64,000 nucleotides of DNA from Spirochaetales bacterium. GTDB taxonomy: Bacteria; Spirochaetota; Spirochaetia; JABEVK01. Shown here in pieces: positions 22,736 through 43,455 of the stretch. The stretch lies in assembly GCA_947478845.1 (NCBI GenBank), contig CANJXC010000005.1:80246-144245 (forward strand), in the 5' to 3' direction. The notes beneath the pieces are model-generated. The model had not been told where the DNA came from, made no database searches, and saw only the letters and a list, made by a program, of their open reading frames with translations. The translations under genes and the position numbers were made by a program. Each line of letters starts with the position of its first letter. Within the stretch, counting starts at the first letter, position 1.

Positions 22736-22773
22736 TCCGTAACCAGTGCTATACTCGAGGTTAGGAGGACACA

Positions 22774-24070: not shown

Positions 24071-24087
24071 AGACAAAGAGGAAGCTC

Positions 24088-25446: not shown

Positions 25447-25454
25447 GAGTATCG

Positions 25455-26837
25455 ATGTACGATATCATCATTGTTGGCGGCGGCCCGGGTGGCTATGTTG
25501 CCGCCGAAAGAGCCGGAGCCCGTGGCTTAAAAGTGCTCCTCATTGAGAAAGAGTTCCTGGGCGGCACCTGCCTCAACTGGGGTTGCATTCCCACAAAAAC
25601 GCTGCTGAACTCCGCCAAAACCTACGCCCATGCGTTGCATGGAGAACGCTTTGGCCTCCATGCCGAAAAAGTGATTATGAACTGGGCAGAGGCGCTTGCC
25701 TGGAAAGCTGAGGTGGTCACCAAATTGCGCGGTGGCGTTGCCTTCCTCATGAAGAAGTTTGGGGTAGAAGTGGTCAACGGCACCGCCGAGCTTGTTGACA
25801 GGAATACCGTGCGAACAGTCGAGGGACAGACCTACCAGGGAAGAAACCTCATTATCGCCACCGGGAGCTCGCCCGCCATGCCCCCCCTGCCCGGCACCAA
25901 AGACAACCCCAAAGTGGTCAGCAGCACCAGTTTGCTCGACCTCAAAGAAGTTCCCAACCGCCTTGTGGTCATTGGTGGTGGCGTCATAGGCGTTGAGTTT
26001 GCCAGCCTGTTTGCCACCCTGGGAAGCAAGGTTACGGTGGTCGAGATGATGGACGAGATTATCCCGTTCATGGACAAGGAACAGGCACCCCAGTTTCGTA
26101 AAGCCTTGTCCAGCGTCCCGCACTCTGGCCTGCTGGACGCCAATATCGACTTCCAACTTGGCTGCAAGGTGGAAAAGCTCGAGGGAGGCACAGTTCAGTA
26201 CACCGGGAAAGACGGAGCCAAGAGCGTCACCGGCGACGTGGTGCTGATGGCTGTCGGACGCACCCTGAATGTGAAGGGCTTGGGTCTTGAGGCGCTCGGA
26301 GTGGACTTCGGCCCCAAAGGTATCGTCGTGAACGAGTACCAGCAGACCAACCTTCCGGGTGTGTACGCTGTTGGCGATGTCACGGGCCGCAGCCTCTTGG
26401 CTCACTCGGCCAGCCGCATGGGCGAAGTTGCCGTCAGTGCCATTATCGACGAGCCCCACAAACGCCAGCGGATGCGCTACCACGCCATTCCGTGGGTGGT
26501 GTACAGCAATCCTGAGGCCGCCGGCGTGGGCCTCACCGAAGATGAGGCCAAAAAACAGGGAAAGAACGTGGTGACGGCCACGGTTGCGTTGCGCAACATG
26601 GGTCGATATCTGGCCGAAAATGGCCCCACGGGTCCCGGCGCCACCAAAGTGATCGTCGACAAAGACACAGACCGAATTCTAGGTATCCACATGTACGGCG
26701 CCGGAGTTGGCGAGATGATCTGGGGCGGCGCGGCCCTCATCGAATTGGAGCTGCGGGTTCACGAGGCCCGTGAACTCATTTTCCCTCACCCCACGACCGG
26801 CGAGTCCATCCGAGACGCCCTCTGGGAACTTCACTAA
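25455..26837 (+). CDS. lpdA: dihydrolipoyl dehydrogenase (E3)
   Basis: GGGPGGY FAD motif and redox CLNWGCIPTK. Confidence 0.95.
   Translation: MYDIIIVGGGPGGYVAAERAGARGLKVLLIEKEFLGGTCLNWGCIPTKTLLNSAKTYAHALHGERFGLHAEKVIMNWAEALAWKAEVVTKLRGGVAFLMKKFGVEVVNGTAELVDRNTVRTVEGQTYQGRNLIIATGSSPAMPPLPGTKDNPKVVSSTSLLDLKEVPNRLVVIGGGVIGVEFASLFATLGSKVTVVEMMDEIIPFMDKEQAPQFRKALSSVPHSGLLDANIDFQLGCKVEKLEGGTVQYTGKDGAKSVTGDVVLMAVGRTLNVKGLGLEALGVDFGPKGIVVNEYQQTNLPGVYAVGDVTGRSLLAHSASRMGEVAVSAIIDEPHKRQRMRYHAIPWVVYSNPEAAGVGLTEDEAKKQGKNVVTATVALRNMGRYLAENGPTGPGATKVIVDKDTDRILGIHMYGAGVGEMIWGGAALIELELRVHEARELIFPHPTTGESIRDALWELH
25823..25833 (+). repeat. dispersed word, copy 5 (11/12: GGGACAGACCTa) in lpdA, sense
   Basis: Encodes E-G-Q-T-Y. 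Confidence 0.8.
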
Positions 26838-26860
26838 GCATAGGAAACAGGAGATAGAAG

Positions 26861-29317
26861 ATGCCCAAAGCCCTTACCGTTGACCCCAAAGTTGTCCGCC
26901 AGCCCGGAGTTCTCAAGACGAAGGACATCCCGCTGAACCAGTATAAAGGCGATATCCAAGTCGAGCTGAAAAAGTACGGCAAGGACAAGCTGGTGCGGAT
27001 CTTCCACACCATGGCCACTATTCGCGAGTTCGAGTCGATGCTCAACCTCGTCAAAACCCAGGGAGGATACAAAGGGGTAGACTACAACCACCGCGGCCCG
27101 GCCCACCTTTCCGCCGGGCAGGAGGCCAGCTCCACGGGTCAGTCTTTCGCCCTCGATGTGCAAGACTTCACCTTTGGCAGCCACCGCAGCCACGGCGAGA
27201 TCATCTCGAAGTGCTTTGCCGCGGTATCCCAATTGCCCGACGAAGAGCTTCTCAAGGTGATGAAAGCTTTCTGGGGTGGTGAAACCCTGAAAGTAGCCGA
27301 AAAGGCCGGAGCCAACAGCACCAAGGAACTGGCCGACGACTTCGTGTTGTACGGTGCCCTTGCCGAAATCTTTGCCAAGTCCCCCGGCTTCCACCGTGGT
27401 TTGGGCGGCTCGATGCATGCCTTTTTCGCACCTTTTGGCATGATGCCCAACAATGCACTGGTGGGTGGTTCGGCCGACATCGCCACAGGCGCCGCTCTCT
27501 TCAAGCGCATCAACGGCAAACCCGGCATTGTTGTGAGCAACGTCGGCGATGCCGCCATGGGTTGTGGCCCGGTGTGGGAGGCGATGATGTTCGCTGGAAT
27601 GGAACAGTACCGCACCCTTTGGGGCAAAGACGCTGGCGGTGCGCCGCCCATCCTTTTTAACTTCTTCAACAATTTTTACGGCATGGGGGGACAGACCTCG
27701 GGCGAAACCATGCCCTACCAAATCCTAGCCCGCGTCGGTGCCGGTGTGAACGCTGCGGCCATGCATGCCGAGCGTGTCGACGGCTACAACCCGCTGGCGG
27801 TGCTTGATGCGGTGGAACGCAAAAAAAAGATTCTCTTGGCCGGCGAGGGCCCGGTTCTCTTGGACACCATTACCTACCGCCTCAGCGGCCACTCACCCTC
27901 CGATGCCTCGAGTTACCGCACCAAAGAAGAGATAGAGCTCTGGGAAAATGCTGACTGCGTCAAGAGTTACGGCGAGTACCTAGTCAACGGTGGCGTCTTG
28001 AAAGCCAATGAGGTGGAGACCATCCGCGCGGGCATTGGAGCCAAGATGGACAGCATCTACAAGCTTGCCATCGACATGAACGAGTCTCCGCGCATCCAAG
28101 GCGCCTACATCGAAACGGTGATGTTCAGCAACCAAAAGGTCGACAAGCTCGAAGACCGCAAGCCGGAAACTCTTTTGCTCCGTGGCGAGGATCCCCGCAG
28201 CGTTTCGCTGAAAACCAAGGCACGCTACGCTCTCGACGCCGAGGGAAAGCCACTTCCCAAGGCCAAGATATTCGCCTACCGCGACGGCCTGTTTGAAGCC
28301 ATGCTGCACCGGTTTTATGAGGATCCGACCATGGCAGCCTGGGGCGAAGAAAACCGCGACTGGGGTGGCGCGTTTGCCGTTTACCGCGGCCTCACCGAAG
28401 CACTGCCCTACAAGCGACTGTTCAACAGCCCCATCAGCGAAGGCGCCATCGTGGGCTCGGGTGTAGGCTATGCTCTGGCCGGTGGGCGCGCGGTGGTAGA
28501 ACTGATGTATTGCGACTTCATGGGCCGCGCAGGTGACGAGATTTTCAACCAAATGGCCAAATGGCAGGCGATGTCGGCCGGCCAACTTCGCATGCCGCTG
28601 GTACTTCGCGTCTCGGTGGGAGCCAAGTACGGAGCCCAACACAGCCAGGACTGGAGCGCACTAGTAGCTCACATTCCTGGGCTCAAGGCTTACTTCCCCG
28701 CCACGCCTACCGACGCCAAGGGCATGCTTAACCTCGCTCTGCGGGGTACCGACCCTGTGGTCTTCTTTGAAAGTCAGAGCCTCTACGACGTGGGTGAGCT
28801 CTTCGAAAAAGCCGGTGTACCGGAAGGCTTCTATGAGACTGCCGAAGGTGAACCCGTTGTACGCCAAACTGGCAAAGACCTCACCATCGCCACTCTGGGA
28901 GCTACCCTCTATAAGGCCGTCGACACGGCAAAAGTTCTCAAAGACAAATATGGCCTGGAAGCCGAGATCATCGACCTGCGTTTCATCAGCCCGTTGAAGT
29001 ACGACGTTCTTCTGGATTCAGTGAAGAAAACGGGTAAACTCCTTCTGGCAAGCGACGCGGTCGAACGGGGCAATTTCCTCCACACTGTCGCTTCTACGGT
29101 GACCCAAGTGGCCTTCGATTACCTTGACGCTCCAGTTGCCGTCGTGGGAAGCCGCAACTTCATTACTCCTGCAGCTGAGATGGAGGAAGAGTTTTTCCCG
29201 CAACGAGAATGGCTTCTCGATACCATCCACGAACGGATTCTCCCGTTGAACGGACACACTCCAACTACGGTTCAAACCTCGGGAGAAATTCTTCGCCGCA
29301 ACCGGTTGGGAGTTTAG
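26861..29317 (+). CDS. fused E1 component (alpha+beta subunits in one 818-aa polypeptide) of a thiamine-diphosphate dependent 2-oxoacid/acetoin dehydrogenase
   Basis: The N-terminal half carries the TPP-binding alpha-subunit region (GGSMHAF...). The C-terminal half is a transketolase-like beta subunit. Fused E1 alpha/beta genes are annotated in other bacteria (for example Bacteroidetes). Confidence 0.85.
27688..27699 (+). repeat. dispersed word GGGACAGACCTC, copy 6 in E1 gene, sense
   Basis: Exact 12/12. Encodes G-G-Q-T-S. Confidence 0.9.
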
Positions 29318-29321
29318 CCCT

Positions 29322-30671
29322 GTGAGCCGACGCGACCGCGTCAACGACGCCCAACTAACGCCGGCTGAGCGACTTCAAGCCTTGCGAGAGCTGGTGAAAG
29401 CGGGACAAGTCCGCCGCGAGAGCGCCCTCTCCGGGGGTGAGGTGAACAACCATGTTCATACCATTTATAGCTTTAGTCCCTATACGCCTTCGATGGCCGT
29501 ACTGAAAGCCTTCGAGGCCGGCCTAGACGCCGTCGGATCGGTAGATCATGACTCGGTGGGAGCAGCCCGAGAAACCCTCGAAGCAGGGAAGGTTCTAGGC
29601 ATCGCTACCACAGTAGGTTGTGAAGTCAGGGTTTCCTTTGCCAAGACGCCTTTTGAGCACCGCAAAATCAATTACCCCGAGTGTCTGGGCAAAGCCTATA
29701 TGGTGTTCCACGGCCTTCCTGAGCGTAGTCTGGACGCCGTGGAAGCTTTCCTAAAGCCCTTACGGGAAGTAAGGGTGGAAAGAACCCGGGCGATGACCAT
29801 CAGGCTGTCAGAGGTTTTCGTGTCAGCCGGGCTGCCTTCGGTGCACTTCGAACGCGATGTGGCTTCGATTACCCAGCTTCATCAAGGTGGCGGGGTCACC
29901 GAAAGACACCTCTGCGCCGCTGCTGCCAAGGTTCTCCGGGGCCACGCGGGCAACGGGAAGGGTGTGGTGACCCTACTTCAGGACAACCTCGGCTTTACTG
30001 TAACCCCGGAAGTTGCCAAACGGCTCGGTGATGAAGCCAATCCCCACGCCCTTTACGATTTGGTCGGATTCCTTAAGACCACCTTGCTCGAGCAGGTGTT
30101 TTTGCAGCCTTCCGATCTCGAATGCCCTCCCGTGCGCGAGGTGGTGGCCTTTGCTCGCTCGGTGGGAGCCTTGCCTTCCTACGCCTACCTAGGAGACGTG
30201 GGTGAATCACCTACGGGAGACAAAAAATCCGAGTTCTTCGAGGATGCTTATCTGGCCGATTTATTGGCTGCCCTGGGAGAGCTTGGTTTTCAGGCCGTAA
30301 CTTATATGCCACCACGAAACTCGCTGGCCCAGCTCAAGCGCGTCCAAGAGCTCTGTGCGAGTCACGGACTGATGGAGATTTCCGGGGTCGACATCAACAG
30401 TTCGCGTCAGAGCTTTCATTGTCCGGAGGTGCTGTTACCAGAGTTTCGCCACCTGAACCAAAGCACGTGGGCTCTCATCGCTCACGAGAAATTAACTAAC
30501 CGCGAAGCCAGCTTGGGTCTCTTCGACCCCAGAAACCCGGGCTCGAGACTCCCGCTGACTCAACGTCTCGAGGCCTACGCCCAGGTGGGCAGAGCGATGG
30601 ATGCCCGCCAACCCCAGAATCTCCGCACACCGGAGTTTCCAGACCAACTTGCCAGGAGCCCTCGTGTCTGA
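29322..30671 (+). CDS. PHP-domain metal-dependent phosphoesterase with C-terminal extension
   Basis: NNHVHTIYS...SVDHDS PHP motifs. A GTG start lies 4 nt after the E1 stop, so it is operonic. Confidence 0.7.
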   Translation: MSRRDRVNDAQLTPAERLQALRELVKAGQVRRESALSGGEVNNHVHTIYSFSPYTPSMAVLKAFEAGLDAVGSVDHDSVGAARETLEAGKVLGIATTVGCEVRVSFAKTPFEHRKINYPECLGKAYMVFHGLPERSLDAVEAFLKPLREVRVERTRAMTIRLSEVFVSAGLPSVHFERDVASITQLHQGGGVTERHLCAAAAKVLRGHAGNGKGVVTLLQDNLGFTVTPEVAKRLGDEANPHALYDLVGFLKTTLLEQVFLQPSDLECPPVREVVAFARSVGALPSYAYLGDVGESPTGDKKSEFFEDAYLADLLAALGELGFQAVTYMPPRNSLAQLKRVQELCASHGLMEISGVDINSSRQSFHCPEVLLPEFRHLNQSTWALIAHEKLTNREASLGLFDPRNPGSRLPLTQRLEAYAQVGRAMDARQPQNLRTPEFPDQLARSPRV

Positions 30672-31749
30672 CACCGCTTTCCTTGTGGCACCGCGAATCC
30701 GTGGGCTGGCCTCGTGCTCGGGTCACCGTGTGCGTGTGCGCTTTGAGGACTTGACCATTCGCCCCACCAAAGGAACTGTGCTCAATCTAAAGTCGCCCGA
30801 CGAGCTAGAGTCCACATGGAAACAAGCAGTCACCTCTAGCCAGTTGCCCTCAGCGGTTTTCGTCGATGGTGTGGGCTGTTTTTTTCTCACGGTTTCGGGA
30901 CCTTCAAGGCCCAGCCGCCGCGACGAGGTGATTGCGGGCAAAGTTGCCGTTGTCACCGGCGGTGCTCAAGGCTTCGGTGAGGAAATCGCCCGCGGTTTGG
31001 TGGCCAACGGAGGCTTTGTGGCAGTGGCCGACCTCAACCTTGCGGGGGCGAACAAACTCGTCGAAAGCCTCAATGCCGCCGCTGGCAAACCTGTTGCCAT
31101 GGCCGTGGCCGTGAACATTGCCGACGAGGCCTCCGTGGAGGCCATGGTCAAGGAGGTCACTCTGGCCGTGGGTGGCATAGACCTTTTCGTGGCCAACGCA
31201 GGGGTGCTCAAAGCCAGTCCTGTGGTCGACCAAGACCTCAAGTCCTTCGAGTTTGTTACCGCCGTCAATTACACCGGCTACATGCTTTGCGTCAAACACG
31301 CCGCCAGGGTCATGCGCGAGCAGACCCAGTTCGACCCAAGCAGTTGGACCGATATCATTCAGATCAATTCCAAATCGGGACTAGAGGGCTCCAACAAGAA
31401 TGGCAGCTATGCGGGAAGCAAGTTTGGTGGCATCGGTCTTACACAGAGCTTTGCCCTCGAGCTAGTGGCCTACCACATCAAGGTCAATGCAATCTGCCCG
31501 GGCAATTTCTTCGACGGGCCTTTGTGGTCAGACCCCGAAAAAGGTCTGTTCGCCCAGTACCTGCACACCGGCAAAGTACCCGGCGCCAAGAGCCTGGCCG
31601 ATGTGAAGACCTTCTACGAAGCCAAGGTGCCCATGAACCGGGGTTGTACCGGGGCCGATGTTCTCAAAGCCCTGCTTTACATTTGTGACCAAGCCTATGA
31701 AACCGGCCAAGCAGTCCCTGTTACTGGTGGCCAAACCATGCTGAACTAA
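30664..31749 (+). CDS. SDR-family dehydrogenase, sorbitol-6-phosphate 2-dehydrogenase (SrlD/GutD)-like, with about 100-aa N-terminal extension
   Basis: The C-terminal half aligns closely with E. coli SrlD (IIQINSKSG..SKFGG.GLTQS.ALEL...KVP.KRGC...VTGGQ). Rossmann motif VAVVTGGAQGFG. There is no ATG before the Rossmann fold, so the start is an upstream GTG (30664 or later). Confidence 0.75.
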   Translation: MSDTAFLVAPRIRGLASCSGHRVRVRFEDLTIRPTKGTVLNLKSPDELESTWKQAVTSSQLPSAVFVDGVGCFFLTVSGPSRPSRRDEVIAGKVAVVTGGAQGFGEEIARGLVANGGFVAVADLNLAGANKLVESLNAAAGKPVAMAVAVNIADEASVEAMVKEVTLAVGGIDLFVANAGVLKASPVVDQDLKSFEFVTAVNYTGYMLCVKHAARVMREQTQFDPSSWTDIIQINSKSGLEGSNKNGSYAGSKFGGIGLTQSFALELVAYHIKVNAICPGNFFDGPLWSDPEKGLFAQYLHTGKVPGAKSLADVKTFYEAKVPMNRGCTGADVLKALLYICDQAYETGQAVPVTGGQTMLN

Positions 31750-31778
31750 GAGGCCGATATCGAGCACAAGGAGTTACT

Positions 31779-33041
31779 ATGAAAACTAAGGCGGTGCGCC
31801 TCCATGGTGTCAATGATTTGCGACTCGAGGAGTTTGAACTCCCAGCGATCAAGGAGGATGAGATTCTGGCCAAGGTTGTGTCCGACTCCCTGTGCATGTC
31901 GAGCTACAAGCTGGCCAAACAGGGCGACAAGCACAAGCGGGTCCGCTACGATCTGAAAAAACACCCGATCATCCTCGGACACGAGTTCTGCGGCGAGCTC
32001 ATCGAAGTGGGAAAAAAATGGTCGAAGAAGTTCAAGGTGGGAGACCACTTCAGTATACAGCCTGCGTTGAACAAAGACGGCACTCCGTGGGCGCCTGGAT
32101 ACAGCTATGAGCATATCGGTGGCGATAGCCAATATGTGGTTATTCCCTCCGAAGTGATGGAACTCGACTGCCTTCTTCCGTACCCCAGCGACGTCTTTTT
32201 CATGGGCTCCTTGAGCGAGCCGGTCAGTTGTGTGATCGGCGCCTTTAACGCCAACTACCACAGCAAACCCGGAAGTTACGTGCATGAAATGGGCATTGTC
32301 GAAGGGGGAGCCACCGTCTTGGTGGCCGGCATCGGCCCCATGGGTCTCGGAGCCATTGACTACGCCCTGCACGGCCCCCGACGCCCACGCCGCCTCATCG
32401 TGACGGGAACCAAGGAAGAGCGGCTTAACCGCGCTCGCAGCCTGCTCACGGTGGAGGATGCCCGAGCCCACGGCGTTGACTTGCATTACGTGAATACCAC
32501 AGAACACACCGACCCGGTGGCTGCTCTGAAGGCGCTCAACGAGGGTAAACTCTTCGACGACGTCTTTGTCTTCGCCCCGGCTCGTGACCTTGTCGAGTTC
32601 GGCGCCCAACTTTTGGGCCGTGATGGCTGTTTGAACTTCTTTGCTGGCCCCAGCGATACGGCGTTCAGCGCAACCTTCAACTTTTATGGGGTCCACTATG
32701 AGGGCCATCATGTGGCTGCCAATTCCGGTGGAAACAACGACGACCTGCACCAGGCACTTGAGTTGATGATGCGCGGCCAACTCAACCCGGCCATCATGGT
32801 CACGCACGTGGGCGGCCTCAACGCCGTCGTGCAGACCACCCTCGAGTTAGACAAGATCCCCGGTGGCAAAAAGCTCATGTACGTGCAAAAGAATCTGGAA
32901 CTGGTCGCGATTGCGGAGTTTGCGCAGCACGGCAAGACGAATCAATTCTACGCAAAATTGGCTGAAATCTGCGCGCGGCACAATCAGCTCTGGAACGGCG
33001 AGGCCGAGAAGTATCTGTTGGCACACGCGCCTTTGATTTAG
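31779..33041 (+). CDS. zinc-containing medium-chain dehydrogenase, L-sorbose-1-phosphate reductase (SorE)-like
   Basis: 420 aa. Zn ligand region GHEFCGELIEVG. Good RBS. Confidence 0.8.
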   Translation: MKTKAVRLHGVNDLRLEEFELPAIKEDEILAKVVSDSLCMSSYKLAKQGDKHKRVRYDLKKHPIILGHEFCGELIEVGKKWSKKFKVGDHFSIQPALNKDGTPWAPGYSYEHIGGDSQYVVIPSEVMELDCLLPYPSDVFFMGSLSEPVSCVIGAFNANYHSKPGSYVHEMGIVEGGATVLVAGIGPMGLGAIDYALHGPRRPRRLIVTGTKEERLNRARSLLTVEDARAHGVDLHYVNTTEHTDPVAALKALNEGKLFDDVFVFAPARDLVEFGAQLLGRDGCLNFFAGPSDTAFSATFNFYGVHYEGHHVAANSGGNNDDLHQALELMMRGQLNPAIMVTHVGGLNAVVQTTLELDKIPGGKKLMYVQKNLELVAIAEFAQHGKTNQFYAKLAEICARHNQLWNGEAEKYLLAHAPLI

Positions 33042-33125
33042 CAGAGATGGGGCCTAGCTGAGCGACCTCATTTTCGTGGCCTCGGTAAGGCCGCACTCAA
33101 ACATTTGACGAGAAAGGAGAACCAA

Positions 33126-33794
33126 ATGATCTACATGGCCGACACTGCGAATCTCGAGGAACTACGATCACTTTTCCATCACTTCCCACTCGAGGGCGTG
33201 ACCACCAACCCCACCATCTTGTCGAAAGGTGGACTACAGCTCTCGAAGGCGGTGCCAGCCATTCTCGAAATCGTCGGTAACAAGATGATGCACATGCAGA
33301 TGATCAGTGACAGCGCCGAGGACATATTGGCTGAGGCACAAAGCTACCGCAAGCGCTTTTCACTGGGTGACAACTACTACGTGAAGATACCGGTCACCCG
33401 GGAAGGCTTCCGAGCCATACAGATGGTGAAGCGTGCCGGAATGAAAGTGACCGCTACTGCTATTTTCACCCAACAACAGGCGCTCATCGCCGCCAAAGCC
33501 GGAGCGGATTACGTGGCCCCATATGTGAACCGCCTCGACAACATTGTCAGCCACGGCATCGAAGTGGTGAGCGACATTGTCAACACTTTCGCCCGCTACG
33601 GACTGGCCACCAAAGTCCTCGCCGCCAGCTTCAAAAACGTGGACCAGATTTACCGCGTCAGCATGGTGGGCTGCCATGCCGTCACCGCGTCGGCAGACGT
33701 GCTCAACGCCATGGTCAACCACCCCATGACCGACCTGGCCGTGGAAGATTTCAAGATCGACGGTGCTGCTTGGTACGACGTGGAACGGGTGTAG
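33126..33794 (+). CDS. fructose-6-phosphate aldolase / transaldolase-family (FSA/TalC-like) enzyme
   Basis: The GVTTNPT signature and an active-site Lys region are present. AAGGAGA RBS before ATG 33126. Confidence 0.85.
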   Translation: MIYMADTANLEELRSLFHHFPLEGVTTNPTILSKGGLQLSKAVPAILEIVGNKMMHMQMISDSAEDILAEAQSYRKRFSLGDNYYVKIPVTREGFRAIQMVKRAGMKVTATAIFTQQQALIAAKAGADYVAPYVNRLDNIVSHGIEVVSDIVNTFARYGLATKVLAASFKNVDQIYRVSMVGCHAVTASADVLNAMVNHPMTDLAVEDFKIDGAAWYDVERV

Positions 33795-33828
33795 GATAAG
33801 CTTCCCAGCGCTTCACTAGAAATCACAT

Positions 33829-34257
33829 CTAAAATGGAAACTTGATTTTGAGCCCGGCGAACCTCAGGTAGTCGCGGTCGCCAGTGACCAGCGTTGCATC
33901 GTTTTCAAGGGCCAAGGCAGCCAAGTGGGCGTCGGTAGTCAAGTTACCACCGGTGCCAGCAACCAGCAGCAGGTGGCGCAAAATTCCGGCGTGGCCCGGC
34001 CCGGGGTTGAGCGGCACCACCGAAGGGGCAGACCTAAAATAGTCGAGCCATTCCAATGCCTGATCAACCGTTAAGGGACGCGAAAACACCTTGGGTGAAG
34101 TCGTGAGTCTCAGAAAACCCAAATGAACCACCCAAGGTAAGGCAACTTCTTCACCCGAGTCGTTGACAGCAATCTCGAGCCACTCTTTGGCCGCGTGGTG
34201 CCTCACAGAACTGTCGTCTGCCGCGTAGAGAAGCACATTGAGATCCGGGACAATCAC
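33829..34257 (-). CDS. vapC: PIN-domain toxin VapC
   Basis: 142 aa. N-terminal MIVPDLNVLLYA is the PIN acidic-residue pattern. Overlaps vapB by 4 nt. Confidence 0.85.
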   Translation of the reverse strand: MIVPDLNVLLYAADDSSVRHHAAKEWLEIAVNDSGEEVALPWVVHLGFLRLTTSPKVFSRPLTVDQALEWLDYFRSAPSVVPLNPGPGHAGILRHLLLVAGTGGNLTTDAHLAALALENDATLVTGDRDYLRFAGLKIKFPF

Positions 34258-34511
34258 TTGAGGCGCTCGAAGTTTTCGGCGACCGACCCGGCCTCGAGCG
34301 CATCGATCAACGCCCAGGCTTTTGTGTAATCAAGCCTCTGGCCTCCCAGCGAAAAGGTGGGGCAGACCCAGCGAGGCTGGGTGCCGGCTTTCTTGTGCAA
34401 CCCCAAACTAAGGGCCTCGGCGACTACCGACTTAATTGAACGAGCCTCAAGGGCAGCCCGTTGTGCAACTTCACGCATTAAAACATCTGGTAATACTAAA
34501 GTAGTTCGCAT
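34254..34511 (-). CDS. vapB: antitoxin VapB (ribbon-helix-helix/AbrB-like)
   Basis: 85 aa, starting MRTTLVLPDVLMREV. Immediately upstream of and overlapping vapC. Confidence 0.7.
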   Translation of the reverse strand: MRTTLVLPDVLMREVAQRAALEARSIKSVVAEALSLGLHKKAGTQPRWVCPTFSLGGQRLDYTKAWALIDALEAGSVAENFERLK

Positions 34512-34517
34512 ATTCGC

Positions 34518-34546
34518 ATACTACTCTCGCTGGAGGCGCAAGTCAA
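34518..34546 (-). promoter_or_regulatory. near-consensus sigma70-type promoter TTGACT-17nt-TAGTAT for vapBC, -10 ending 6 nt before the ATG (leaderless-type)
   Basis: Minus-strand sequence cTTGACTtgcgcctccagcgagagTAGTATgcgaatATG. Confidence 0.45.
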
Positions 34547-34558
34547 GTGTGGAGAGCC

Positions 34559-35737
34559 TCAGGGGGTTTTCGTAGGCCAAGTTGCCAACAGCTTGTCGAC
34601 CCTTTGGCGCTTTTCGCCCGGGAAGCTCTCGTGGAACACGCCGCCCATGTGATAGCAAGCCAGACCACCGCAGGTTGAGGCCCAACGGAGAGCTTCCTCT
34701 AGGTCCGAGGTCTGTCCCCGTTCCTTTTGCAAAGCCAAAGAAGTGAGCACTCCCCCTGCAAAGTTATCGCCACAGCCGGTCGTGTCACCTTTCAGGTAAG
34801 GGTTTTCGGCCAAGTCATTTAGCACATGTTGGCAGACGGGGGAGGTCTGTCCCTCGGGTTTAACGAAACGAGGCGACGCCACCCGGAACTCAGTGTCGTG
34901 CACCCCGTCGGTGACTACGGCGGCCCCTACGCCCTGCCCTACAAACCAATCGAGGGCCGCACCGACGGTCGACGCTCCCGACAACCTCAGGGCCTCTTCA
35001 CGGTCGGCCACCAACAAGTCGATGAAACGATAGCTGGCGTCGCTGCTGCCTAAAGGCCAGCGCCCTGCCGGGTTGCGTTTTTCATTGCGGAAGTCGTACA
35101 CGGTGTTCACGAGGGTGAAGGCACCTGCTTGTTTGGCGCGCTGGAGAAGCGTATCGAGGTGGTCGTGCAGGCCGGGCACGAGGCCGGTTCCACCGAAGAC
35201 GACGAAATCTGAGGCAAAGAAGTCTTCACCCAAGTCTTCGGGAGTCAAGTGCCATGCGGTGCCAATGTTATTCACAAACGTCCTTTCGCCCCGGCCGTTC
35301 GCGTATCGGGGATCGGAAAGAACGTAGGTGAACGGGGTGAGTCCGCTTTTTAGTTTCAGACCGCGCGGGGAGAGGGGAGTCCGCGCCAATTGTCTGCCCA
35401 GCTCCGTGCCCAATTCATCGGCGCCGATGGCTCCCACGAAGTTCACTTCGAAGCTTGAGGGCTCCAGTAATTGCGCGGCGTTGATGAGGGCTACGATTCC
35501 GGGCCCCCCGATGTTGGTGGCGTGAGCCTGCCGACCTTGGGTGATTGTCCCCAAAGTCTCAAGGCATGGGCGCCCCGTGAAACGCTCAAAGTCTTCGGTA
35601 AAAACCAGTTTGCCAGGTTCAAGGCCCCCGTCTCCTGGTGTACGTGACCGACTGTTCTCAAATCCGGACGACAAAAAATCGACATCGGCATAGATGACAT
35701 CGACGAGGACGCAACCTGCACCCGAGATTCTGATCAT
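34559..35737 (-). CDS. PfkB-family (ribokinase superfamily) carbohydrate kinase, unusually long (392 aa)
   Basis: GCGDNFAGG anion-hole/catalytic Asp motif and an NXXE region. Lies 4 nt downstream of the isomerase-like gene. Confidence 0.8.
   Translation of the reverse strand: MIRISGAGCVLVDVIYADVDFLSSGFENSRSRTPGDGGLEPGKLVFTEDFERFTGRPCLETLGTITQGRQAHATNIGGPGIVALINAAQLLEPSSFEVNFVGAIGADELGTELGRQLARTPLSPRGLKLKSGLTPFTYVLSDPRYANGRGERTFVNNIGTAWHLTPEDLGEDFFASDFVVFGGTGLVPGLHDHLDTLLQRAKQAGAFTLVNTVYDFRNEKRNPAGRWPLGSSDASYRFIDLLVADREEALRLSGASTVGAALDWFVGQGVGAAVVTDGVHDTEFRVASPRFVKPEGQTSPVCQHVLNDLAENPYLKGDTTGCGDNFAGGVLTSLALQKERGQTSDLEEALRWASTCGGLACYHMGGVFHESFPGEKRQRVDKLLATWPTKTP
34707..34718 (-). repeat. dispersed word GGGACAGACCTC, copy 7 (minus) in PfkB kinase gene
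   Basis: exact 12/12. Confidence 0.9.
34842..34853 (-). repeat. dispersed word GGGACAGACCTC, copy 8 (minus) in PfkB kinase gene, flanked by GGGGG
   Basis: exact 12/12. Confidence 0.9.
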
Positions 35738-35741
35738 GCCT

Positions 35742-36773
35742 CTATCCCCGCAACAAAAGATTCACCACGTACATTTCCAGAGCCTCGTAGTTGCGCTCGG
35801 CTACGCACTTCTTCTGGAACCCGTAGTCGAACTTCAGGGCCTTTTCTTCCAGTAACTTGGCAATGGTCAGGCTGTTGGACAGGTGCTCGTAGCCGGCGCT
35901 GTCCTTGGTGGTGCGCATGGCTTTCACGTCCAAGCCGACGTACTCGCCGTTCTTGCCGTAGTCGTTTTCGACGAGCACCTTGATCTGATTGAACCCTTGG
36001 CGAAGGTTCTCGACGCCGAAGGAGCGGTCTTGGTCGAACTTTAGGCCATTCTGGTCGTTGAGGTGTACCCCCCAGAGCTTGCCCATGGCCAGCCCAAAGG
36101 CGATCTCGTTGGCGGGATCGAGGCCCGCAAGAATGGCGTGGGCCGACTCAAGAAGACCGCCCACGCGGGTGGGGTCAACTGTGGCGGCGCTGACGCCCAT
36201 CACGTGGCCGATGGTTCCACAGTAGCTGCGGTCCACTGGTTCGTTGGGCTTGGGCTCGATGAGAATTTTGATGGTTTTGTCGTAGCTGAGCATAGCGTTT
36301 ACGGCTTCCACCAAGTGCTTGATGGCCACCACCGGGTCTTTGCTCTCGGCGCAACTGGTACCTTCTCGAGCCAACCACAGCACAATCTTGTCGCAACCGA
36401 GCTCTCGGGCGATGTCGATCGACTTTAGCGAGCGGTCGATGGCGTACTTGCGGTCGGCAGCACTGTTGGACGTGTAGGCTCCATCAATGCAGTGCTCGTC
36501 CATCCACAATCGGGGGGCCACGAACTCGGCCGCCATGCCGTGGTTGTCGAGCAGCTTCTTGACTTCTTTAGCCTTCGCCGAAATCTGCGCAGCGGATTTG
36601 CCATTGATTTCAGGCACCGCGTCATCGTCGTGGAACTGCACGGCGTCGAAGCCCAGCCGCTTAAAGGTTTCCACCTTTTTTGCGAAGGCGATCGTGGCTC
36701 GGGTGGCGGGGCCATAAACGTCGGCACCCTCGGCAACATTCCATGGACCTACGGAATAACGGAACTTCGACAT
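35742..36773 (-). CDS. xylA: xylose isomerase (XylA class I)-like sugar isomerase, short form (about 343 aa)
   Basis: Matches class I xylose isomerase (for example Streptomyces) at FHDDD, EPKPNEP and HLNDQNGLKFDQDRSFG. The start MSKFRYSVGPW is at 36773. The 24-codon upstream extension has no RBS. Confidence 0.7.
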   Translation of the reverse strand: MSKFRYSVGPWNVAEGADVYGPATRATIAFAKKVETFKRLGFDAVQFHDDDAVPEINGKSAAQISAKAKEVKKLLDNHGMAAEFVAPRLWMDEHCIDGAYTSNSAADRKYAIDRSLKSIDIARELGCDKIVLWLAREGTSCAESKDPVVAIKHLVEAVNAMLSYDKTIKILIEPKPNEPVDRSYCGTIGHVMGVSAATVDPTRVGGLLESAHAILAGLDPANEIAFGLAMGKLWGVHLNDQNGLKFDQDRSFGVENLRQGFNQIKVLVENDYGKNGEYVGLDVKAMRTTKDSAGYEHLSNSLTIAKLLEEKALKFDYGFQKKCVAERNYEALEMYVVNLLLRG

Positions 36774-36903
36774 GGTCAAACTCTCCTTTCTTCGTGAGCG
36801 CGCACGGGCTACCTTGAGGATTATCCACGACAAGTGTGTGGTCAAGACGTTTTGTGCTGGTCAAGTTCGCAATATCGCGGGACACTGGCAGCAGGAGACT
36901 TGT

Positions 36904-38100
36904 ATGCCCTTGTTTGTTCAGTTTGGCGCCGGGAACATTGGTCGGTCTTTTCTTGGCCGCCAGTTCTCGGAAGCAGGCTTCGAGGTGACGTTTGTCGATG
37001 TTGACCGGCGGCTGGTTGCTCTCCTGAACGAGCGGGGAAGCTATAGAGTTGTTGTCAAAGATCTCGATAAGCCCGATGAAACCAAGACAGTGTCGCCGGT
37101 GAGTGCCCTTTTGGGGACAGACCTCGAAGGAATCATCGATGCGGTTGTCAGGGCCGACTTCGTGGCCACCTCGGTAGGGCTCAGGGCCTTGGACTCTGTG
37201 CTTCCCGTGTTTGCCCGGGGGCTTATCGCGCGGGCAAAGGCAGGCCGACCCGACCTCGATGTGATCATCGCCGAGAATCTGAGATCTGGGGCTCAGCTTT
37301 ACCATGAAAAACTGCGGTCTTTGCTCGGTGACCAAGTTTCTGTGCTTGACCACCTCGGACTAGTGGAAACCAGCATCGGCAAAATGGTGCCCTTGATGCC
37401 GGCCGCCGCACTTGCAGAAGACCCTTTGCAACTGTTTGCGGAACCCTACGACACGCTCATCGTCGACCGCAAAGGCTTTCACCAAGCCCTCCCCCCTCTC
37501 AAAGGGCTCAAAGCCGTTGAAAACGTGACGGCCTACGTCGACCGAAAACTTTTCATGCACAACATGAGCCACGCAGCGGCTGCCTATTTCGGTTATGTCG
37601 CCGAGCCCGCGGCCAAGTACCTCTGGCAGGTGATGGAGAACCAAGCGGTGGTCAGCCGAGTCAGGTTGTGTTTGGATGAGAGCGCTGCGGCCCTTGCCTG
37701 CGTTTACCCCCAGGAGTTCAACGGTGCCGAACTGCAGCAACACGGATACGACCTCTTGGCGCGTTACCGCAATCGGGCGTTGGGCGACACGCTCCACCGG
37801 GTGGGGCGCGACCTAGGGCGCAAACTCGCCCGTGACGATCGGCTCATTGGCGCTTGCCTGCTCGCGGCCGAGGCGGGGCTCCCCTACCACCACCTCGCCG
37901 CCGCCGCCGCCGCGGCCCTAGTATTCCGGGCCCCCGACGAACAGGGGCAAATGCTCCCTGCCGACGCGCAGTTTGTTGCAAGGTTAGGCAGCGAGGGCTC
38001 ACGCGCCCTACTGCTTGCGACCTCAAAGCTCGACCCAACCAAGCCTCACGAGGCCGCCGTGCTTGAGACCATCCTGTTGGGGACAGACATGCTCAGGTGA
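36904..38100 (+). CDS. mtlD: mannitol-1-phosphate 5-dehydrogenase (MtlD)-family dehydrogenase
   Basis: N-terminal FVQFGAGNIGRSF. Regions VIIAENL and YVDRKLFMHNMSHAAAAYFGY align with E. coli MtlD. True start is ATG 36904. Confidence 0.75.
   Translation: MPLFVQFGAGNIGRSFLGRQFSEAGFEVTFVDVDRRLVALLNERGSYRVVVKDLDKPDETKTVSPVSALLGTDLEGIIDAVVRADFVATSVGLRALDSVLPVFARGLIARAKAGRPDLDVIIAENLRSGAQLYHEKLRSLLGDQVSVLDHLGLVETSIGKMVPLMPAAALAEDPLQLFAEPYDTLIVDRKGFHQALPPLKGLKAVENVTAYVDRKLFMHNMSHAAAAYFGYVAEPAAKYLWQVMENQAVVSRVRLCLDESAAALACVYPQEFNGAELQQHGYDLLARYRNRALGDTLHRVGRDLGRKLARDDRLIGACLLAAEAGLPYHHLAAAAAAALVFRAPDEQGQMLPADAQFVARLGSEGSRALLLATSKLDPTKPHEAAVLETILLGTDMLR
37114..37125 (+). repeat. dispersed word GGGACAGACCTC, copy 9 in mtlD-like gene
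   Basis: Exact 12/12. Encodes G-T-D-L. Confidence 0.9.
38079..38088 (+). repeat. dispersed word, partial copy 10 (GGGGACAGACat) at 3' end of mtlD-like gene
   Basis: 10 of 13 nt match. Confidence 0.5.
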
Positions 38101-38314
38101 GAAGACTTGCGGGGTTGAGTTCGCTCGATGTCGCTAGATGGTTGAGACACTTGGCGGCCACTCTCCGGTGGCCCAGGAAGCTGGCTTGGGCTTGGCCTTC
38201 CAGCTCAAGCCGTTCTGAAGAAACTCATTAAATCTCTTTTTTAGCCTCTAGGTTTTTGGGGTGTTTTTTTGGCACCGGATTGACATTTTAGAGGGAAAGC
38301 CCTAAAACAGGACA

Positions 38315-39721
38315 ATGCGTGAACGTACACACCCTGAGTTGGCCTGGGGAGTTGACCACCCTGAGCTCAAGCAGGCTCTCAGGTTCTGCCTCACTGCTGG
38401 GGCGTTCAACATCTTTTGGTTTGTGCTTGCAACGCCGCAACAAATCCTTACTGTACTAGTAAAAACCCACTTAGGGGGTAGTGCGTTTCTGCTCGGGATT
38501 CTTGTAGGCGGCGTCAACCTCGCGGGGGCTCTGAATCTTGCTTCAGTGATTCTTGTGGGAGTCTTCCGTGAGCGTCGGATGCTGTGGTTTTGGACCACGC
38601 TCTTCGCCCGCCTTTGCGCCTTTGCCGTGGCTGGAGCCGCTTTCTGGGTCGCGGCCGGGGGCCCGAAGAACCAGGCCGTACTGATCGTGATTATTGCTTC
38701 GGTGGCGTCTTCCATAGGAAACGCGCTTGGGGCTTCCGCCTGGTGGGCTTGGATGGGCGACCTGATTCCCGAAAACATCCGTGCAGGCTTTTTTGGCAAG
38801 CGGTCGGCGCTGGTGCAGACCATCAACATGGTGTTCTTCTTTCTGGCCACTCTGATGATCGACCGCTTTTTGCCGGTGGTCTTCGTGGTGTACGGATGCC
38901 TCTACCTGATTGCCGGCCTCGGAGGAACGCTGGAAGTTCTTACCCAGATCAGGGCCCCGGACCCTCTGCAGGGTAAGGTACCCAAACTTGACCTATCAAC
39001 CTTCCTGGTTCCCCTTAAGGACAAAACTTTCCGACGCTACTGCCTTACTGTGGGTAGTTTCCTGCTGTCGTTCAATCTGGTGGCACCCTTTCTAGCACCT
39101 TTTATTGTGGACCCTCACGGAGCGGGGGCCTCTCCTCTATGGCTGGGAATTGGGTTCGTGATTAGCCAAGGGACCTGGGTACTCGTGGTTCCTCACTGGG
39201 GGCGTCTGATGGACTCCATAGGTCGCCGCGCCGTGGTTGTGGTGGGCGGATTCTTTGTGGTCGCCTGGGTTGCCTACCTGTTCATGAACTCCACCAATTA
39301 CTGGTATTTGATTCCCCTTGCCTCTTTCATCGTAGGCCTTTTGGCCCCGGCCTATTGGGAAGGCATCACCCAGTTCATGGTCACCCTATCGCATCCTGAC
39401 CACCGCACCGCCTATGCGGGCTGGTTTTGGACTTGGTTTGGCCTGACGGCGGCCGTGGGACCCGTTATCGGCGGGGCCGCCTACGACCTGCTGGAGGCCA
39501 CCCCTATGGTGATTGGCCAGGTTTCTTTCCAGCCGCTTCAAGTGCTCATTGTTGCGGCCATTTTGCTCACTTCCACCGCCCAGCTCACTCTTGCCCGTAT
39601 GCGCTCACCCCAACGTCCCACCGACAGCGTGCGTAGCCTGCTTTCCACGCTCCTGAGCGCCGAGACCCTGCAGACTATCACCGGAAACGTGCTGTTTTGG
39701 CGCCGGCCTCCGCGAGAGTAG
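38315..39721 (+). CDS. MFS-type transporter
   Basis: 468 aa, 12 or more predicted TM. Sugar-transporter-like loop GKRSALVQ. Confidence 0.8.
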   Translation: MRERTHPELAWGVDHPELKQALRFCLTAGAFNIFWFVLATPQQILTVLVKTHLGGSAFLLGILVGGVNLAGALNLASVILVGVFRERRMLWFWTTLFARLCAFAVAGAAFWVAAGGPKNQAVLIVIIASVASSIGNALGASAWWAWMGDLIPENIRAGFFGKRSALVQTINMVFFFLATLMIDRFLPVVFVVYGCLYLIAGLGGTLEVLTQIRAPDPLQGKVPKLDLSTFLVPLKDKTFRRYCLTVGSFLLSFNLVAPFLAPFIVDPHGAGASPLWLGIGFVISQGTWVLVVPHWGRLMDSIGRRAVVVVGGFFVVAWVAYLFMNSTNYWYLIPLASFIVGLLAPAYWEGITQFMVTLSHPDHRTAYAGWFWTWFGLTAAVGPVIGGAAYDLLEATPMVIGQVSFQPLQVLIVAAILLTSTAQLTLARMRSPQRPTDSVRSLLSTLLSAETLQTITGNVLFWRRPPRE

Positions 39722-42467: not shown

Positions 42468-43455
42468 CACTGACGCCCCCAAACAGGATTTTGCCTGCTG
42501 AAAACTTTATGGGGTCGATATGGACGCTCCGTGCGCCTAGGCGGTCGCCGATATTCGGGGCGGTCCAGGCATGGTAGACCAGCCACATTGCTCCGGAGTC
42601 GTCCGCAACGATGCACTGGTGGCCTGGGCCGGCCACGGAGCGCTCAGAAAATACGAGGGGATTCTCAGGATCTTTCACAAAGGGTCCCGTAGCCGACGAG
42701 GAAGTCGCGTATCCAATTGCATAGGAATCGCTGGCAAAATCTCCGGCGGAGTATAAAAGGTAGTAAATCTTGTCTTCATAGTGCATGGTCGGCGCTTCGA
42801 CGACGCTGCCCTCCCAAAGCTTGGTATTAAACAGTAACTGCGTGGGCTCGCCAAGCAGGTTAAGGCCGTCTTCCGTGAGCTTTTGCACGTAGAGGTTCGT
42901 GTATTGGCCGACGGCATTCCCGTCGTTCTTCCAATACAAATACAGCTGGCCATCGGTATCCCGGAAGGGACTGGCGTCTATGCTACCTCCGGCACTGGTT
43001 TGGTTGACCAAGGGCCCGGTCGAGCGGTCGACGAATGGTCCCTGAGGCGCACTCGAGAAGGCCACGCTGACGCATTGAACATTGGTTGCCTTGTCCCTCA
43101 CGGTATAATAGAGCAGGAACCCGCCCAAAACTGCAATCACCTCAGGGGCCCATGTGAGACCCTTCCTCGCCCAGCTAGGTAAAACAGGTAAGGCATCCTT
43201 GCCCAGTTGCCAGCTCACCAAGTTATGACTGGTCGCGTATTGCACGTTGCCTTGGGTACCGTTGGTGGCGTACAGGTGGTATTCTCCCGCGACTTTCAAC
43301 ACGAAGGGATCAGGGAAGTTTCCCCTTAGTACCGGGTTCAAGTAACTCCCGGTCGAAGCGTTGTTCAACGTTTCCATTTTAACCACCTTGTTACTTGCGC
43401 AAGAAACCAAACAGGCCAATGTCAAAACCACGAGAACGGTAGTTTTGAAGGTCAT
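42427..43455 (-). CDS. glycoside hydrolase family 43 lipoprotein (beta-xylosidase/arabinanase-like)
   Basis: Lipobox LACLVSCAS. GH43 five-bladed propeller motifs (FPDPFV, WAPEV). ATGA overlap with the upstream GH gene. Confidence 0.85.
   Translation of the reverse strand: MTFKTTVLVVLTLACLVSCASNKVVKMETLNNASTGSYLNPVLRGNFPDPFVLKVAGEYHLYATNGTQGNVQYATSHNLVSWQLGKDALPVLPSWARKGLTWAPEVIAVLGGFLLYYTVRDKATNVQCVSVAFSSAPQGPFVDRSTGPLVNQTSAGGSIDASPFRDTDGQLYLYWKNDGNAVGQYTNLYVQKLTEDGLNLLGEPTQLLFNTKLWEGSVVEAPTMHYEDKIYYLLYSAGDFASDSYAIGYATSSSATGPFVKDPENPLVFSERSVAGPGHQCIVADDSGAMWLVYHAWTAPNIGDRLGARSVHIDPIKFSAGKILFGGVSDDSRPAPIHQPEV

Follow-up and report, generated by a model that had tools for sequence, protein, structure and literature searches.

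Two independent gene units around three sugar-phosphate dehydrogenase homologues in a spirochaete, one of them a candidate route for L-fucose and L-rhamnose

We analysed a stretch of 64,000 nucleotides (hereafter the window) from the metagenome-assembled genome of a freshwater Spirochaetales bacterium (GenBank assembly GCA_947478845.1, contig CANJXC010000005.1, positions 80,246 to 144,245), in which the 8 genes within positions 30664-38100 include three dehydrogenase homologues: a short-chain dehydrogenase/reductase (SDR) resembling sorbitol-6-phosphate dehydrogenase (S6PDH), a medium-chain zinc dehydrogenase (MDR) resembling SorE, and an MtlD-like member of the mannitol-1-phosphate 5-dehydrogenase (M1PDH) family. 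An earlier sequence-only reading had joined these, an aldolase of the fructose-6-phosphate aldolase (FSA) type and a long PfkB-family kinase into a single hexitol or ketose route to fructose-6-phosphate (F6P). Its family calls were right as resemblances, as judged by NCBIfam and PDB scores; in place of one route, the region holds two independent gene units, a module (23222-33041, extended to 33794 by the FSA-type gene) and a unit built on the long PfkB and MtlD-like genes. The SDR and MDR genes are the tail of a seven-gene operon that also encodes a thiamine- and lipoyl-dependent dehydrogenase complex (E1-E2-E3) and a PHP-fold protein, all of which had been left unconnected. We propose, with a probability of about 0.4, that the module may be an aldolase-independent route for the 6-deoxy-L-hexoses L-fucose and L-rhamnose; it more probably serves 6-deoxy-sugar breakdown than a hexitol pathway.

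Conservation and neighbours of the two units

Genes of the window were taken from a listing of open reading frames (ORFs) annotated with Pfam and NCBIfam, with gene calls from near-identical metagenome contigs (Table 1). The seven genes of the module stand in the order DeoR-E2-E3-E1-PHP-SDR-MDR, with gaps of 4-29 nt from the DeoR gene to the MDR gene apart from 111 nt behind DeoR and an 8-nt overlap between the PHP and SDR genes. Promoter and terminator scans of the region gave matches at chance level only, so the operon structure is drawn from gene spacing and synteny only; an Rfam scan of window positions 22-40 kb gave no match.

This order recurs in distant genomes, including Spirochaetota, a Lentisphaerales metagenome-assembled genome (MAG), an Atribacteria MAG, Anaeromyxobacter and unclassified MAGs. 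Using the PHP protein as a marker and one genome per species, we found it in at least 558 species genomes, mostly Spirochaetota, further carriers being one MAG each from Atribacteria and Anaeromyxobacter and MAGs that bear the labels Lentisphaerae, Verrucomicrobiota or Planctomycetota. Among the carriers which are in culture and have a complete genome are Spirochaeta thermophila, Gracilinema caldarium, Marispirochaeta aestuarii and Treponema sp. HNW. By tblastn over 87 loci, many of them on contigs which end inside the locus, E1 was found in 54, E2 in 46, E3 in 49, SDR in 71 and MDR in 52, and the DeoR gene was conserved 5' of E2 in 42.

For the neighbourhood analysis, neighbouring ORFs were clustered, representatives were annotated and the counts were then redone by tblastn; neighbour counts refer to the 49 module loci of at least 15 kb, other tallies to 84 module loci. 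At least one gene of 6-deoxyhexose type was found in 38 of the 49 long loci. The genes which recur beside the module are those for fucose, rhamnose and FGGY kinases, and hexitol genes are not among them. FGGY kinases of type A were present in 19, mostly between SDR and MDR, and rhamnulokinase-like FGGY kinases of type B (457 bits to TIGR02627) in 11; FucU/RbsD mutarotase was found in 9, L-rhamnose isomerase RhaA (617 bits) in 8, L-fucose isomerase FucI in 2 and a RhaE-like aldolase-domain protein in 11. The kinase genes lie inside the operon, either between SDR and MDR or directly 3' of MDR. At the Alkalispirochaeta locus (L061), MDR-FucU-FucI-FGGY_A form a single gene string beside the module, and in Spirochaeta thermophila the string DeoR-E2-E1-PHP-SDR-FGGY_A-MDR precedes genes for a sensor/regulator pair, an ABC transporter and RhaM, then an aldolase-domain gene and RhaA. 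This S. thermophila module (L168, 2197-5941) has no E3 gene, E2 being directly followed by E1, and its E3 must be encoded elsewhere or shared. Other frequent neighbours were lipoate-protein ligase, HAD hydrolases, Rbs-type ABC transporters, RhaS-like AraC regulators and transketolase, the last encoded in 4 loci.

The second unit has a different distribution. An alignment built on the long PfkB kinase was run against metagenomes and returned 391 relatives, and the neighbourhoods of 80 metagenome loci (L088-L167) were examined. The MtlD-like gene was directly 3' of the PfkB gene on the same strand in 49 of these 80 loci, a cupin-type D-lyxose/mannose isomerase (207 bits to 3kmh) was encoded just 5' of it in 39, and glycoside hydrolase family 92 (GH92) alpha-mannosidases were present in 12, whereas PHP, SDR and E1 were present in none. 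The PfkB/MtlD-like pair in turn was found in 2 of the 84 module loci, the window and L061 alone having both units side by side. The pair is thus independent of the SDR and MDR, because it is separately conserved with mannose isomerase and GH92 genes and without genes of the module. The isomerase-kinase-dehydrogenase triad is often flanked by GH92 genes, for example in L134 (9288-12400), L120 and L136.

The enzymes of the module

The complex has a complete domain set, with thiamine diphosphate-binding and transketolase-like domains in E1, lipoyl, subunit-binding and acyltransferase domains in E2, and an E3 which scored 483.6 bits against TIGR01350 (cut-off 408.8). E2 was below the cut-off of all NCBIfam E2 models for pyruvate dehydrogenase (PDH) and 2-oxoglutarate dehydrogenase (for example PDH E2, 249.7 bits against 445) and E1 was below that of every model it matched (for example PDH E1 beta, 231.7 against 321), and neither reaches a curated model specific for pyruvate, 2-oxoglutarate, branched-chain substrates or acetoin. 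E1 is the module's most conserved protein (58-89% identity among homologous loci); its alpha part has just 73 bits to PDH E1 alpha in the PDB, and the fusion carries approximately 165 extra N-terminal residues.

Fused E1 relatives, approximately 50% identical over 97% of the length, were found by tblastn on the plasmids pRL8 of Rhizobium (L172), pSM30-1 of Pleomorphomonas (L173) and pAt15955 of Agrobacterium (L174). In these clusters no full E2 follows E1; its place is taken by a free lipoyl protein of 78 aa and an AcoC-like alpha/beta hydrolase, and a SorC-type sugar regulator also lies behind E1. The surrounding genes encode FGGY or PfkB kinases, sugar ABC transporters, FucU, a sugar-phosphate isomerase or a polyol dehydrogenase of the mannitol dehydrogenase family, and lipA. 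That the plasmid relatives sit among sugar kinases and transporters argues that the E1 family may act on products of sugar kinases rather than on pyruvate. The alpha-proteobacterial clusters appear to be an uncharacterised sister system.

A close known counterpart is the acetoin dehydrogenase system (AcoA/AcoB/AcoC/AcoL), and Prokka names an E1 relative of 52.6% identity acoB. The two share a thiamine-diphosphate E1 with alpha and beta parts, a lipoyl E2 and an E3, and, where butanediol dehydrogenases are included, a co-encoded SDR and MDR which would make the alpha-hydroxyketone substrate. The module differs in that its E1 is a single 818-aa fusion with the N-terminal addition described above, its dehydrogenases are of sugar-phosphate types (S6PDH-like and SorE-like) rather than butanediol dehydrogenases, and its operon includes DeoR, the PHP protein and sugar kinases.

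The PHP protein, named only "PHP domain-containing protein" or "hypothetical" in the sources, scored 23.1 bits against the Pfam PHP model, under the cut-off of 26.4, and had only marginal matches in a sequence search of the PDB, so that a fold search was needed. Its AlphaFold2 model (predicted local distance difference test, pLDDT, 92.7) matched Bad_1165, the pAp phosphatase Cv1693 and RNase AM in Foldseek (3o0f, 2yb1 and 9etk; probability 1.0, TMt 0.69-0.75). Eight residues (H44, H46, D75, H76, E101, H196, D357 and H388), of the kinds which bind metal in PHP enzymes, were invariant across 42 sequences of the family. It therefore shares its fold and invariant His, Asp and Glu residues with the TrpH/Cv1693-type phosphoesterases (3',5'-nucleoside bisphosphate phosphatase, RNase AM) but is approximately 160 residues longer, has large helical insertions, is 17-19% identical to them and is always encoded in a sugar operon adjoining E1.

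The SDR scored 238.1 bits against the S6PDH model NF009050, under the equivalog cut-off of 307, and 175 bits against the solved S6PDH 5o3z, with every other solved SDR at 100 bits or less; against the RhaW half of TIGR02632 it scored 141 bits. Its catalytic and cofactor motifs are present (TGGAQGFG; Y249 and K253 invariant in 22 homologues). At 361 aa it differs from the single-domain SrlD of approximately 260 aa which is encoded with a glucitol or sorbose phosphotransferase system (PTS). The sequence-only reading had remarked on an N-terminal extension lacking an ATG start, and this extension proved to be a real domain of approximately 90 aa. Gene callers placed a GTG start at 30664 (P0001), 5 nt behind an AGGAG at 30654-30658 and overlapping the PHP stop codon by 8 nt in GTGTCTGA. 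The extension is retained in homologues of 355-435 aa, where R13, G14, L15, P62 and G71 are nearly invariant, in a pattern of APxIRGL, one proline and GVGxF with a variable middle. AlphaFold2 folds residues 1-80 confidently as a compact helix-strand-strand-helix-strand-strand arrangement (pLDDT 80-95).

In three non-spirochaete lineages (L056, L059 and L068) a full RhaE-like class II aldolase domain is fused N-terminal to the SDR, where the window SDR has only these 90 or so residues, and residues 45-82 of the extension weakly matched the C-terminal tail of RhaE-like proteins in hhalign (E 1e-4, probability 56%). These fusions and this match suggest that the extension is a vestige of a RhaE-like aldolase domain. 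BLASTP of the extension against a RhaE-SDR fusion and a Treponema homologue aligned the SDR domain alone, and a profile of it searched against 1.8 billion representative proteins found only fragments of the same family and repetitive giants. An apparent second SDR beside RhaA was considered as a paralogue of the module SDR and ruled out, being a stand-alone aldolase-domain protein which had clustered via the fusion proteins. The arrangement is comparable to RhaEW (YuxG; PMC3870299), in which an aldolase-like domain is likewise joined to an SDR in rhamnose loci; the three fused variants are full counterparts and the window SDR retains an apparent tail of the aldolase domain. However, the module fusions reach 222 bits against a RhaEW cut-off of 568, their SDR half is nearer to S6PDH than to RhaW, and in spirochaetes the aldolase domain is separate or absent.

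The MDR has Pfam ADH_N and ADH_zinc_N domains, with Cys39, His68 and Glu69 read directly from the sequence. Its homologues are 65-75% identical, nearly all of 420 aa, and are named "L-sorbose 1-phosphate reductase" in some sources only (JGI, UniRef); for SorE there is no curated model or solved structure for comparison. In the known L-sorbose pathway, SorE reduces L-sorbose-1-phosphate at C2, while oxidation by S6PDH takes place at the penultimate carbon of the opposite end, for a net shift of the carbonyl from C2 to C5. The module has the same pair of enzyme families side by side as the L-sorbose operon (SorE with SorF/SrlD), which would jointly shift the carbonyl of a ketose-1-phosphate from C2 to C5. 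It differs in having no sorbose PTS, in an SDR with an additional N-terminal domain and a sub-threshold S6PDH score, and in that the pair is embedded in an E1-E2-E3/PHP operon tied to fucose and rhamnose genes.

The FSA-type aldolase was below its model cut-offs (TIGR00875, 202.9 bits against 246; NF009299, 198.5 against 214). Aligned to FSA 9v4b and transaldolase 1vpx, it has Gln in MQMIS, Lys in VKIP and Tyr in APYVNR; by the residue roles reported in published work on both enzymes, Gln and Tyr at the acid-base positions mark FSA, where transaldolases have Glu and Phe, and the Lys is the Schiff base residue. A role as a transaldolase taking up erythrose-4-phosphate was ruled out by this Gln/Tyr signature. 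Of 84 module loci, just 2 had the gene 3' of MDR, those of the window organism and of its relative L008, each time beside a gene for a PIN toxin, and we treat it as a lineage-specific accessory to the operon. Toxin-antitoxin genes (VapC/PIN, PhdYeFM) lie at the edges of the sugar operons: in the window between the FSA and PfkB genes (33829-34511), in L008 between MDR and FSA (13925-14356) and in L001 between MFS and isochorismatase genes (19101-19714), where L002 has the antitoxin alone. These junctions look like insertion hot spots which vary among strains.

A candidate 6-deoxyhexose route and its alternatives

The window itself has a fucose operon 26 kb from the module (58322-63033, minus strand), with genes in the order LacI-FucU-PfkB-FucI-FGGY and no class II aldolase gene within 10 kb; the same placing of a fructokinase-like PfkB between mutarotase and isomerase genes, with no fucA, was seen in L171 (7554-13298). 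Its FGGY kinase overturns the earlier statement that the only kinases are of the PfkB family. The remark that no PTS was in sight holds for the window, where no PTS Pfam domain was found among approximately 50 annotated ORFs; the 25 most frequent families listed for 121 ORFs neighbouring the module loci included no PTS family, and tblastn with approximate HPr and Crr query sequences gave no match. We judge it likely, as had been supposed, that the phosphate comes from cytoplasmic kinases.

In the route we propose, an isomerase and an FGGY kinase would give L-fuculose-1-phosphate or L-rhamnulose-1-phosphate, and the SorE-like MDR would reduce C2 to a 6-deoxyhexitol-1-phosphate. The S6PDH-like SDR would then oxidise C5, a carbon whose position and configuration with respect to the phosphate match those in sorbitol-6-phosphate, to form a 1-deoxy-ketohexose-6-phosphate. 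This methyl alpha-hydroxyketone would be barred from glycolysis and would be a chemical analogue of acetoin, which the acetoin-dehydrogenase-like complex would cleave to acetyl-CoA, NADH and a tetrose-4-phosphate. By stereochemical reasoning, the 1-phosphates of L-sorbose, L-fuculose and L-rhamnulose share their C5 configuration; fucose and rhamnose differ only at C4, the future aldehyde carbon, so the same tetrose phosphate would arise from both, D-threose-4-phosphate if the stereochemistry of the MDR is SorE-like. The probable substrate of the PHP protein is one of the pathway's phosphate esters, and the protein may process the tetrose-4-phosphate, which would be of threo configuration.

Such a scheme would assign to every conserved enzyme except the PHP protein the reaction type of its closest characterised relative, and would thereby account for the in-operon kinases, the DeoR regulator, the missing aldolase in fucose-type loci and the occasional transketolase. 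The transketolase and FSA genes would fit an aldose-phosphate product. The isomerase, FGGY kinase and mutarotase families which flank the module are identical to those of the canonical FucIKA and RhaABD pathways. In contrast to these pathways, fucose-type loci have no aldolase gene, genes for handling lactaldehyde are not conserved, and the module stands in place of fucA/fucO; a FucA of the Escherichia coli type was not found in any module locus by tblastn.

Several points weigh against this proposal. The substrate assignments rest on family resemblance, with the SDR, MtlD-like, FSA, E1 and E2 proteins all under equivalog cut-offs. The PHP protein, which is the module's most diagnostic gene product, has no necessary role in the scheme, and the predicted tetrose-4-phosphate would be D-threose-4-phosphate or L-erythrose-4-phosphate, neither a central metabolite. 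FSA needs D-threo ketoses, a need that misfits the 1-deoxy-tagatose and 1-deoxy-sorbose products expected from L-fucose and L-rhamnose. No 6-deoxy-sugar gene was found within 10 kb in 11 of the 49 long module loci. Finally, a RhaE-like aldolase-domain gene accompanies RhaA in 9 of 9 loci and is SDR-fused in the three lineages above, so the canonical aldolase route may run with the module downstream of it.

This last point leads to the alternative in which a RhaE-like or FucA-type enzyme would cleave the ketose-1-phosphate to dihydroxyacetone phosphate and L-lactaldehyde, which a RhaW-type SDR would convert to lactate, or which would be converted via methylglyoxal, and E1-E2-E3 would be a dedicated PDH forming acetyl-CoA. 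Since the RhaE-like gene is always found with RhaA and also as SDR fusions, that canonical cleavage may occur; the domain is also encoded 5' of PHP in L031, L045 and L086, and the N-terminal extension of the SDR resembles its remnant. The best NCBIfam matches of E1 and E2 are PDH components, and RhaEW has been shown in vitro to produce lactate from rhamnulose-1-phosphate (PMC3870299). We nevertheless regard this alternative as unlikely, as neither the SorE-like MDR nor the PHP protein has a role in it and no aldolase gene is present at the fucose-type loci (L061, L044 and the window). The SDR also matches S6PDH far better than it does the RhaW half of TIGR02632, the alpha part of E1 is very remote from that of PDH, and the alpha-proteobacterial E1 relatives sit with sugar kinases and without aldolases. 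In addition, anaerobic spirochaetes normally use pyruvate:ferredoxin oxidoreductase and reduce lactaldehyde. A speculative middle course is that the RhaE-like protein could adapt rhamnulose-1-phosphate to the module, for example as a 4-epimerase.

It is also conceivable, at rather longer odds, that ordinary, non-deoxy ketose or polyol phosphates are the module's substrates, the complex removing a two-carbon glycolaldehyde unit as glycolyl-CoA or glycolate and leaving an aldose phosphate, as an oxidative counterpart of transketolase or phosphoketolase. Such a role would suit the plasmid E1 relatives, which sit with xylulokinase, a polyol dehydrogenase of the mannitol dehydrogenase family and polyol-type ABC transporters, as well as the loci with no nearby 6-deoxy-sugar gene and the co-occurrence of transketolase. 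However, the S6PDH-like product of a normal hexitol-6-phosphate is F6P, which needs no special cleavage, the dominant signal is the association with RhaA, FucI, FucU and rhamnulokinase-type genes, and glycolyl-CoA is not known as a common catabolic intermediate. The least probable of the explanations is the original one, in which the three dehydrogenases, with the long PfkB as hexitol or ketose kinase, make up a single PTS-independent route from hexitols or sorbose to F6P, which FSA would split into dihydroxyacetone and glyceraldehyde-3-phosphate. The family resemblances are real, no PTS gene is present in the window, the FSA carries the Gln/Tyr signature of true F6P aldolases, and L061 also has the PfkB/MtlD-like pair beside the module. 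We consider it improbable all the same, given that the two units almost never co-occur, that FSA accompanies the module in so few loci, and that the co-operonic E1-E2-E3 and PHP genes, whose conservation with SDR and MDR is far stronger than that of FSA, are ignored.

The second unit, other genes of the window and wider meaning

The MtlD-like protein has both Mannitol_dh domains, the Rossmann domain (PF01232, 99 bits) and the C-terminal domain (PF08125, 77 bits). M1PDH models were far ahead of any other (next family 25 bits), with all nine (NF002645-NF002653) nevertheless below cut-off, including NF002646 at 205.9 bits against 368. The best PDB match of the long PfkB had only 28 bits. In the place of the cupin isomerase the window has a xylose-isomerase-like gene, an arrangement seen only in its close relatives (L088 and L089); the encoded protein scored 181 bits against TIGR02631 (cut-off 447) and 142 bits over residues 5-289 against the Streptomyces and Arthrobacter xylose isomerases. 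A gene resembling class II ketose-bisphosphate aldolases was noted in 6 PfkB loci, identified by sequence reading only.

From these neighbourhoods, the long PfkB and MtlD-like genes appear to form an independent isomerase-kinase-dehydrogenase unit linked to mannose or mannosides. The isomerase would convert an aldose to a ketose, the PfkB kinase would phosphorylate it and the MtlD-like enzyme would interconvert the product with a polyol phosphate, as a non-PTS route separate from the module. The non-PTS route which the sequence-only reading had proposed is therefore retained in part: the second unit does appear to be independent of a PTS, but its supposed link to the SDR and MDR fell away (0 of 80 loci). 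An MtlD encoded with a mannitol PTS has the same two domains and the same best models, whereas the protein described here is below every M1PDH cut-off and its partners are a divergent PfkB kinase, an aldose isomerase and GH92 mannosidases, with no PTS. This warns against annotating the pair as a mannitol pathway.

Table 1 Genes of the module, the second unit and the fucose operon in the window (positions in the window; MFS, major facilitator superfamily)
Feature	Position	Strand	Basis or remark
DeoR-family regulator, first gene of the module	23222-23977	+	Pfam HTH_DeoR and DeoRC
E2 dihydrolipoyl acyltransferase	24088-25446	+	Pfam PF00364, PF02817, PF00198 (lipoyl, E3-binding, catalytic domains)
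E3 dihydrolipoyl dehydrogenase	25455-26837	+	TIGR01350 above cut-off
Fused E1 alpha-beta, thiamine-diphosphate component, 818 aa	26861-29317	+	Pfam E1_dh, Transket_pyr, Transketolase_C
PHP-fold metal-dependent phosphoesterase-like protein, 449 aa	29322-30671	+	Weak Pfam PHP and fold search
S6PDH-like SDR, 361 aa, GTG start, ~90-aa N-terminal domain	30664-31749	+	NCBIfam, gene callers
SorE-like medium-chain zinc dehydrogenase (MDR), 420 aa	31779-33041	+	Pfam ADH_N, ADH_zinc_N
FSA/TalC-type aldolase	33126-33794	+	Pfam TAL_FSA, 172 bits
VapC (PIN) toxin	33829-34257	-	TIGR00028, 125 bits against cut-off 73.6
Small VapB-like ORF, probable antitoxin	34254-34511	-	Upstream of VapC
Long divergent PfkB kinase, 392 aa	34559-35737	-	Pfam PfkB, 68 bits
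Truncated class-I xylose-isomerase-like TIM barrel, 343 aa	35742-36773	-	TIGR02631 sub-threshold
MtlD-like dehydrogenase (M1PDH family), 398 aa	36904-38100	+	Mannitol_dh domains
MFS transporter	38315-39721	+	Pfam MFS_1; 3' of the MtlD-like gene
FGGY kinase	~58322-59800	-	Fucose operon
L-fucose isomerase FucI	59817-61619	-	Fucose operon
Fructokinase-like PfkB	61643-62584	-	Fucose operon; 137 bits to fructokinase 5ey7
FucU	62590-63033	-	Fucose operon

Directly 5' of the DeoR gene (20649-23222) are genes for a luciferase-like monooxygenase (Atu2307/SP_0267 family, 463.6 bits, just at the cut-off), an Old Yellow Enzyme and a DUF386 protein, a block retained in sister contigs (L001, 1-2554) and not in other module loci. 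Between the monooxygenase and a GH3 gene (17574-19262) is a 441-aa ORF (19299-20624) with no Pfam or NCBIfam match, and an alpha-amylase-family protein is encoded at 14384-15916. On the minus strand, a glycoside hydrolase block (40632-47811) encodes GH2, GH43 and GH1/GH42-like enzymes with a CUT1 ABC transporter (two permeases and a solute-binding protein), and a cluster of hexuronate/pectin type (52452-56636) encodes a KduD-like SDR, KduI, a KdgK-like PfkB and a 2-keto-3-deoxy-6-phosphogluconate (KDPG) aldolase, with an IclR regulator adjoining; this KdgK-like protein is one of the PfkB kinases of the sequence-only reading. Shadow ORFs antisense to the MDR, MtlD-like and MFS genes (31746-32807, 36661-37353, 37360-37797 and 38302-38850, all on the minus strand) are typical of GC-rich DNA, and the gene calls for the sister contigs include none of them.

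The full-text literature searched gave no account of the module, of the PHP family or of the triad of PfkB, MtlD-like and lyxose isomerase genes, and a comparative-genomics paper on rhamnose mentions neither spirochaetes nor a dehydrogenase complex (PMC3870299). All parts of the module come from known families, and the novelty would be their combination, with a lipoyl- and thiamine-dependent complex devoted to the breakdown of a sugar phosphate. The 6-deoxy-sugar reading is open to direct tests in the cultured carriers, whose genomes are complete.

Mucins, pectins, algal polysaccharides and bacterial surfaces have fucose and rhamnose among their major sugars. Bacteria are known to degrade both by way of lactaldehyde, and often of 1,2-propanediol as well, and this shapes cross-feeding in the gut. 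In its fullest form, which we hold more tentatively than the outline above, the proposal is that hundreds of spirochaete species and members of several other phyla would break down L-fucose and L-rhamnose free of aldolases, the complex cleaving a 1-deoxy-ketohexose-6-phosphate to acetyl-CoA and tetrose-4-phosphate without lactaldehyde or propanediol and with an extra ATP gained through acetyl-CoA, and the PHP protein, as a new kind of enzyme, processing the tetrose phosphate. If this is true, passing the methyl end to acetyl-CoA via a lipoyl complex would alter the predicted fermentation products and ATP yield of many spirochaetes, and would be the first case of a complex of the 2-oxoacid dehydrogenase type acting on a sugar phosphate. 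It would also assign functions to four families whose present names are wrong or missing ("PHP domain protein", "sorbitol-6-P dehydrogenase", "sorbose-1-P reductase" and "2-oxoisovalerate dehydrogenase E1"), and the pathway would be at work in spirochaetes of termite guts, the rumen, sediments and lakes.

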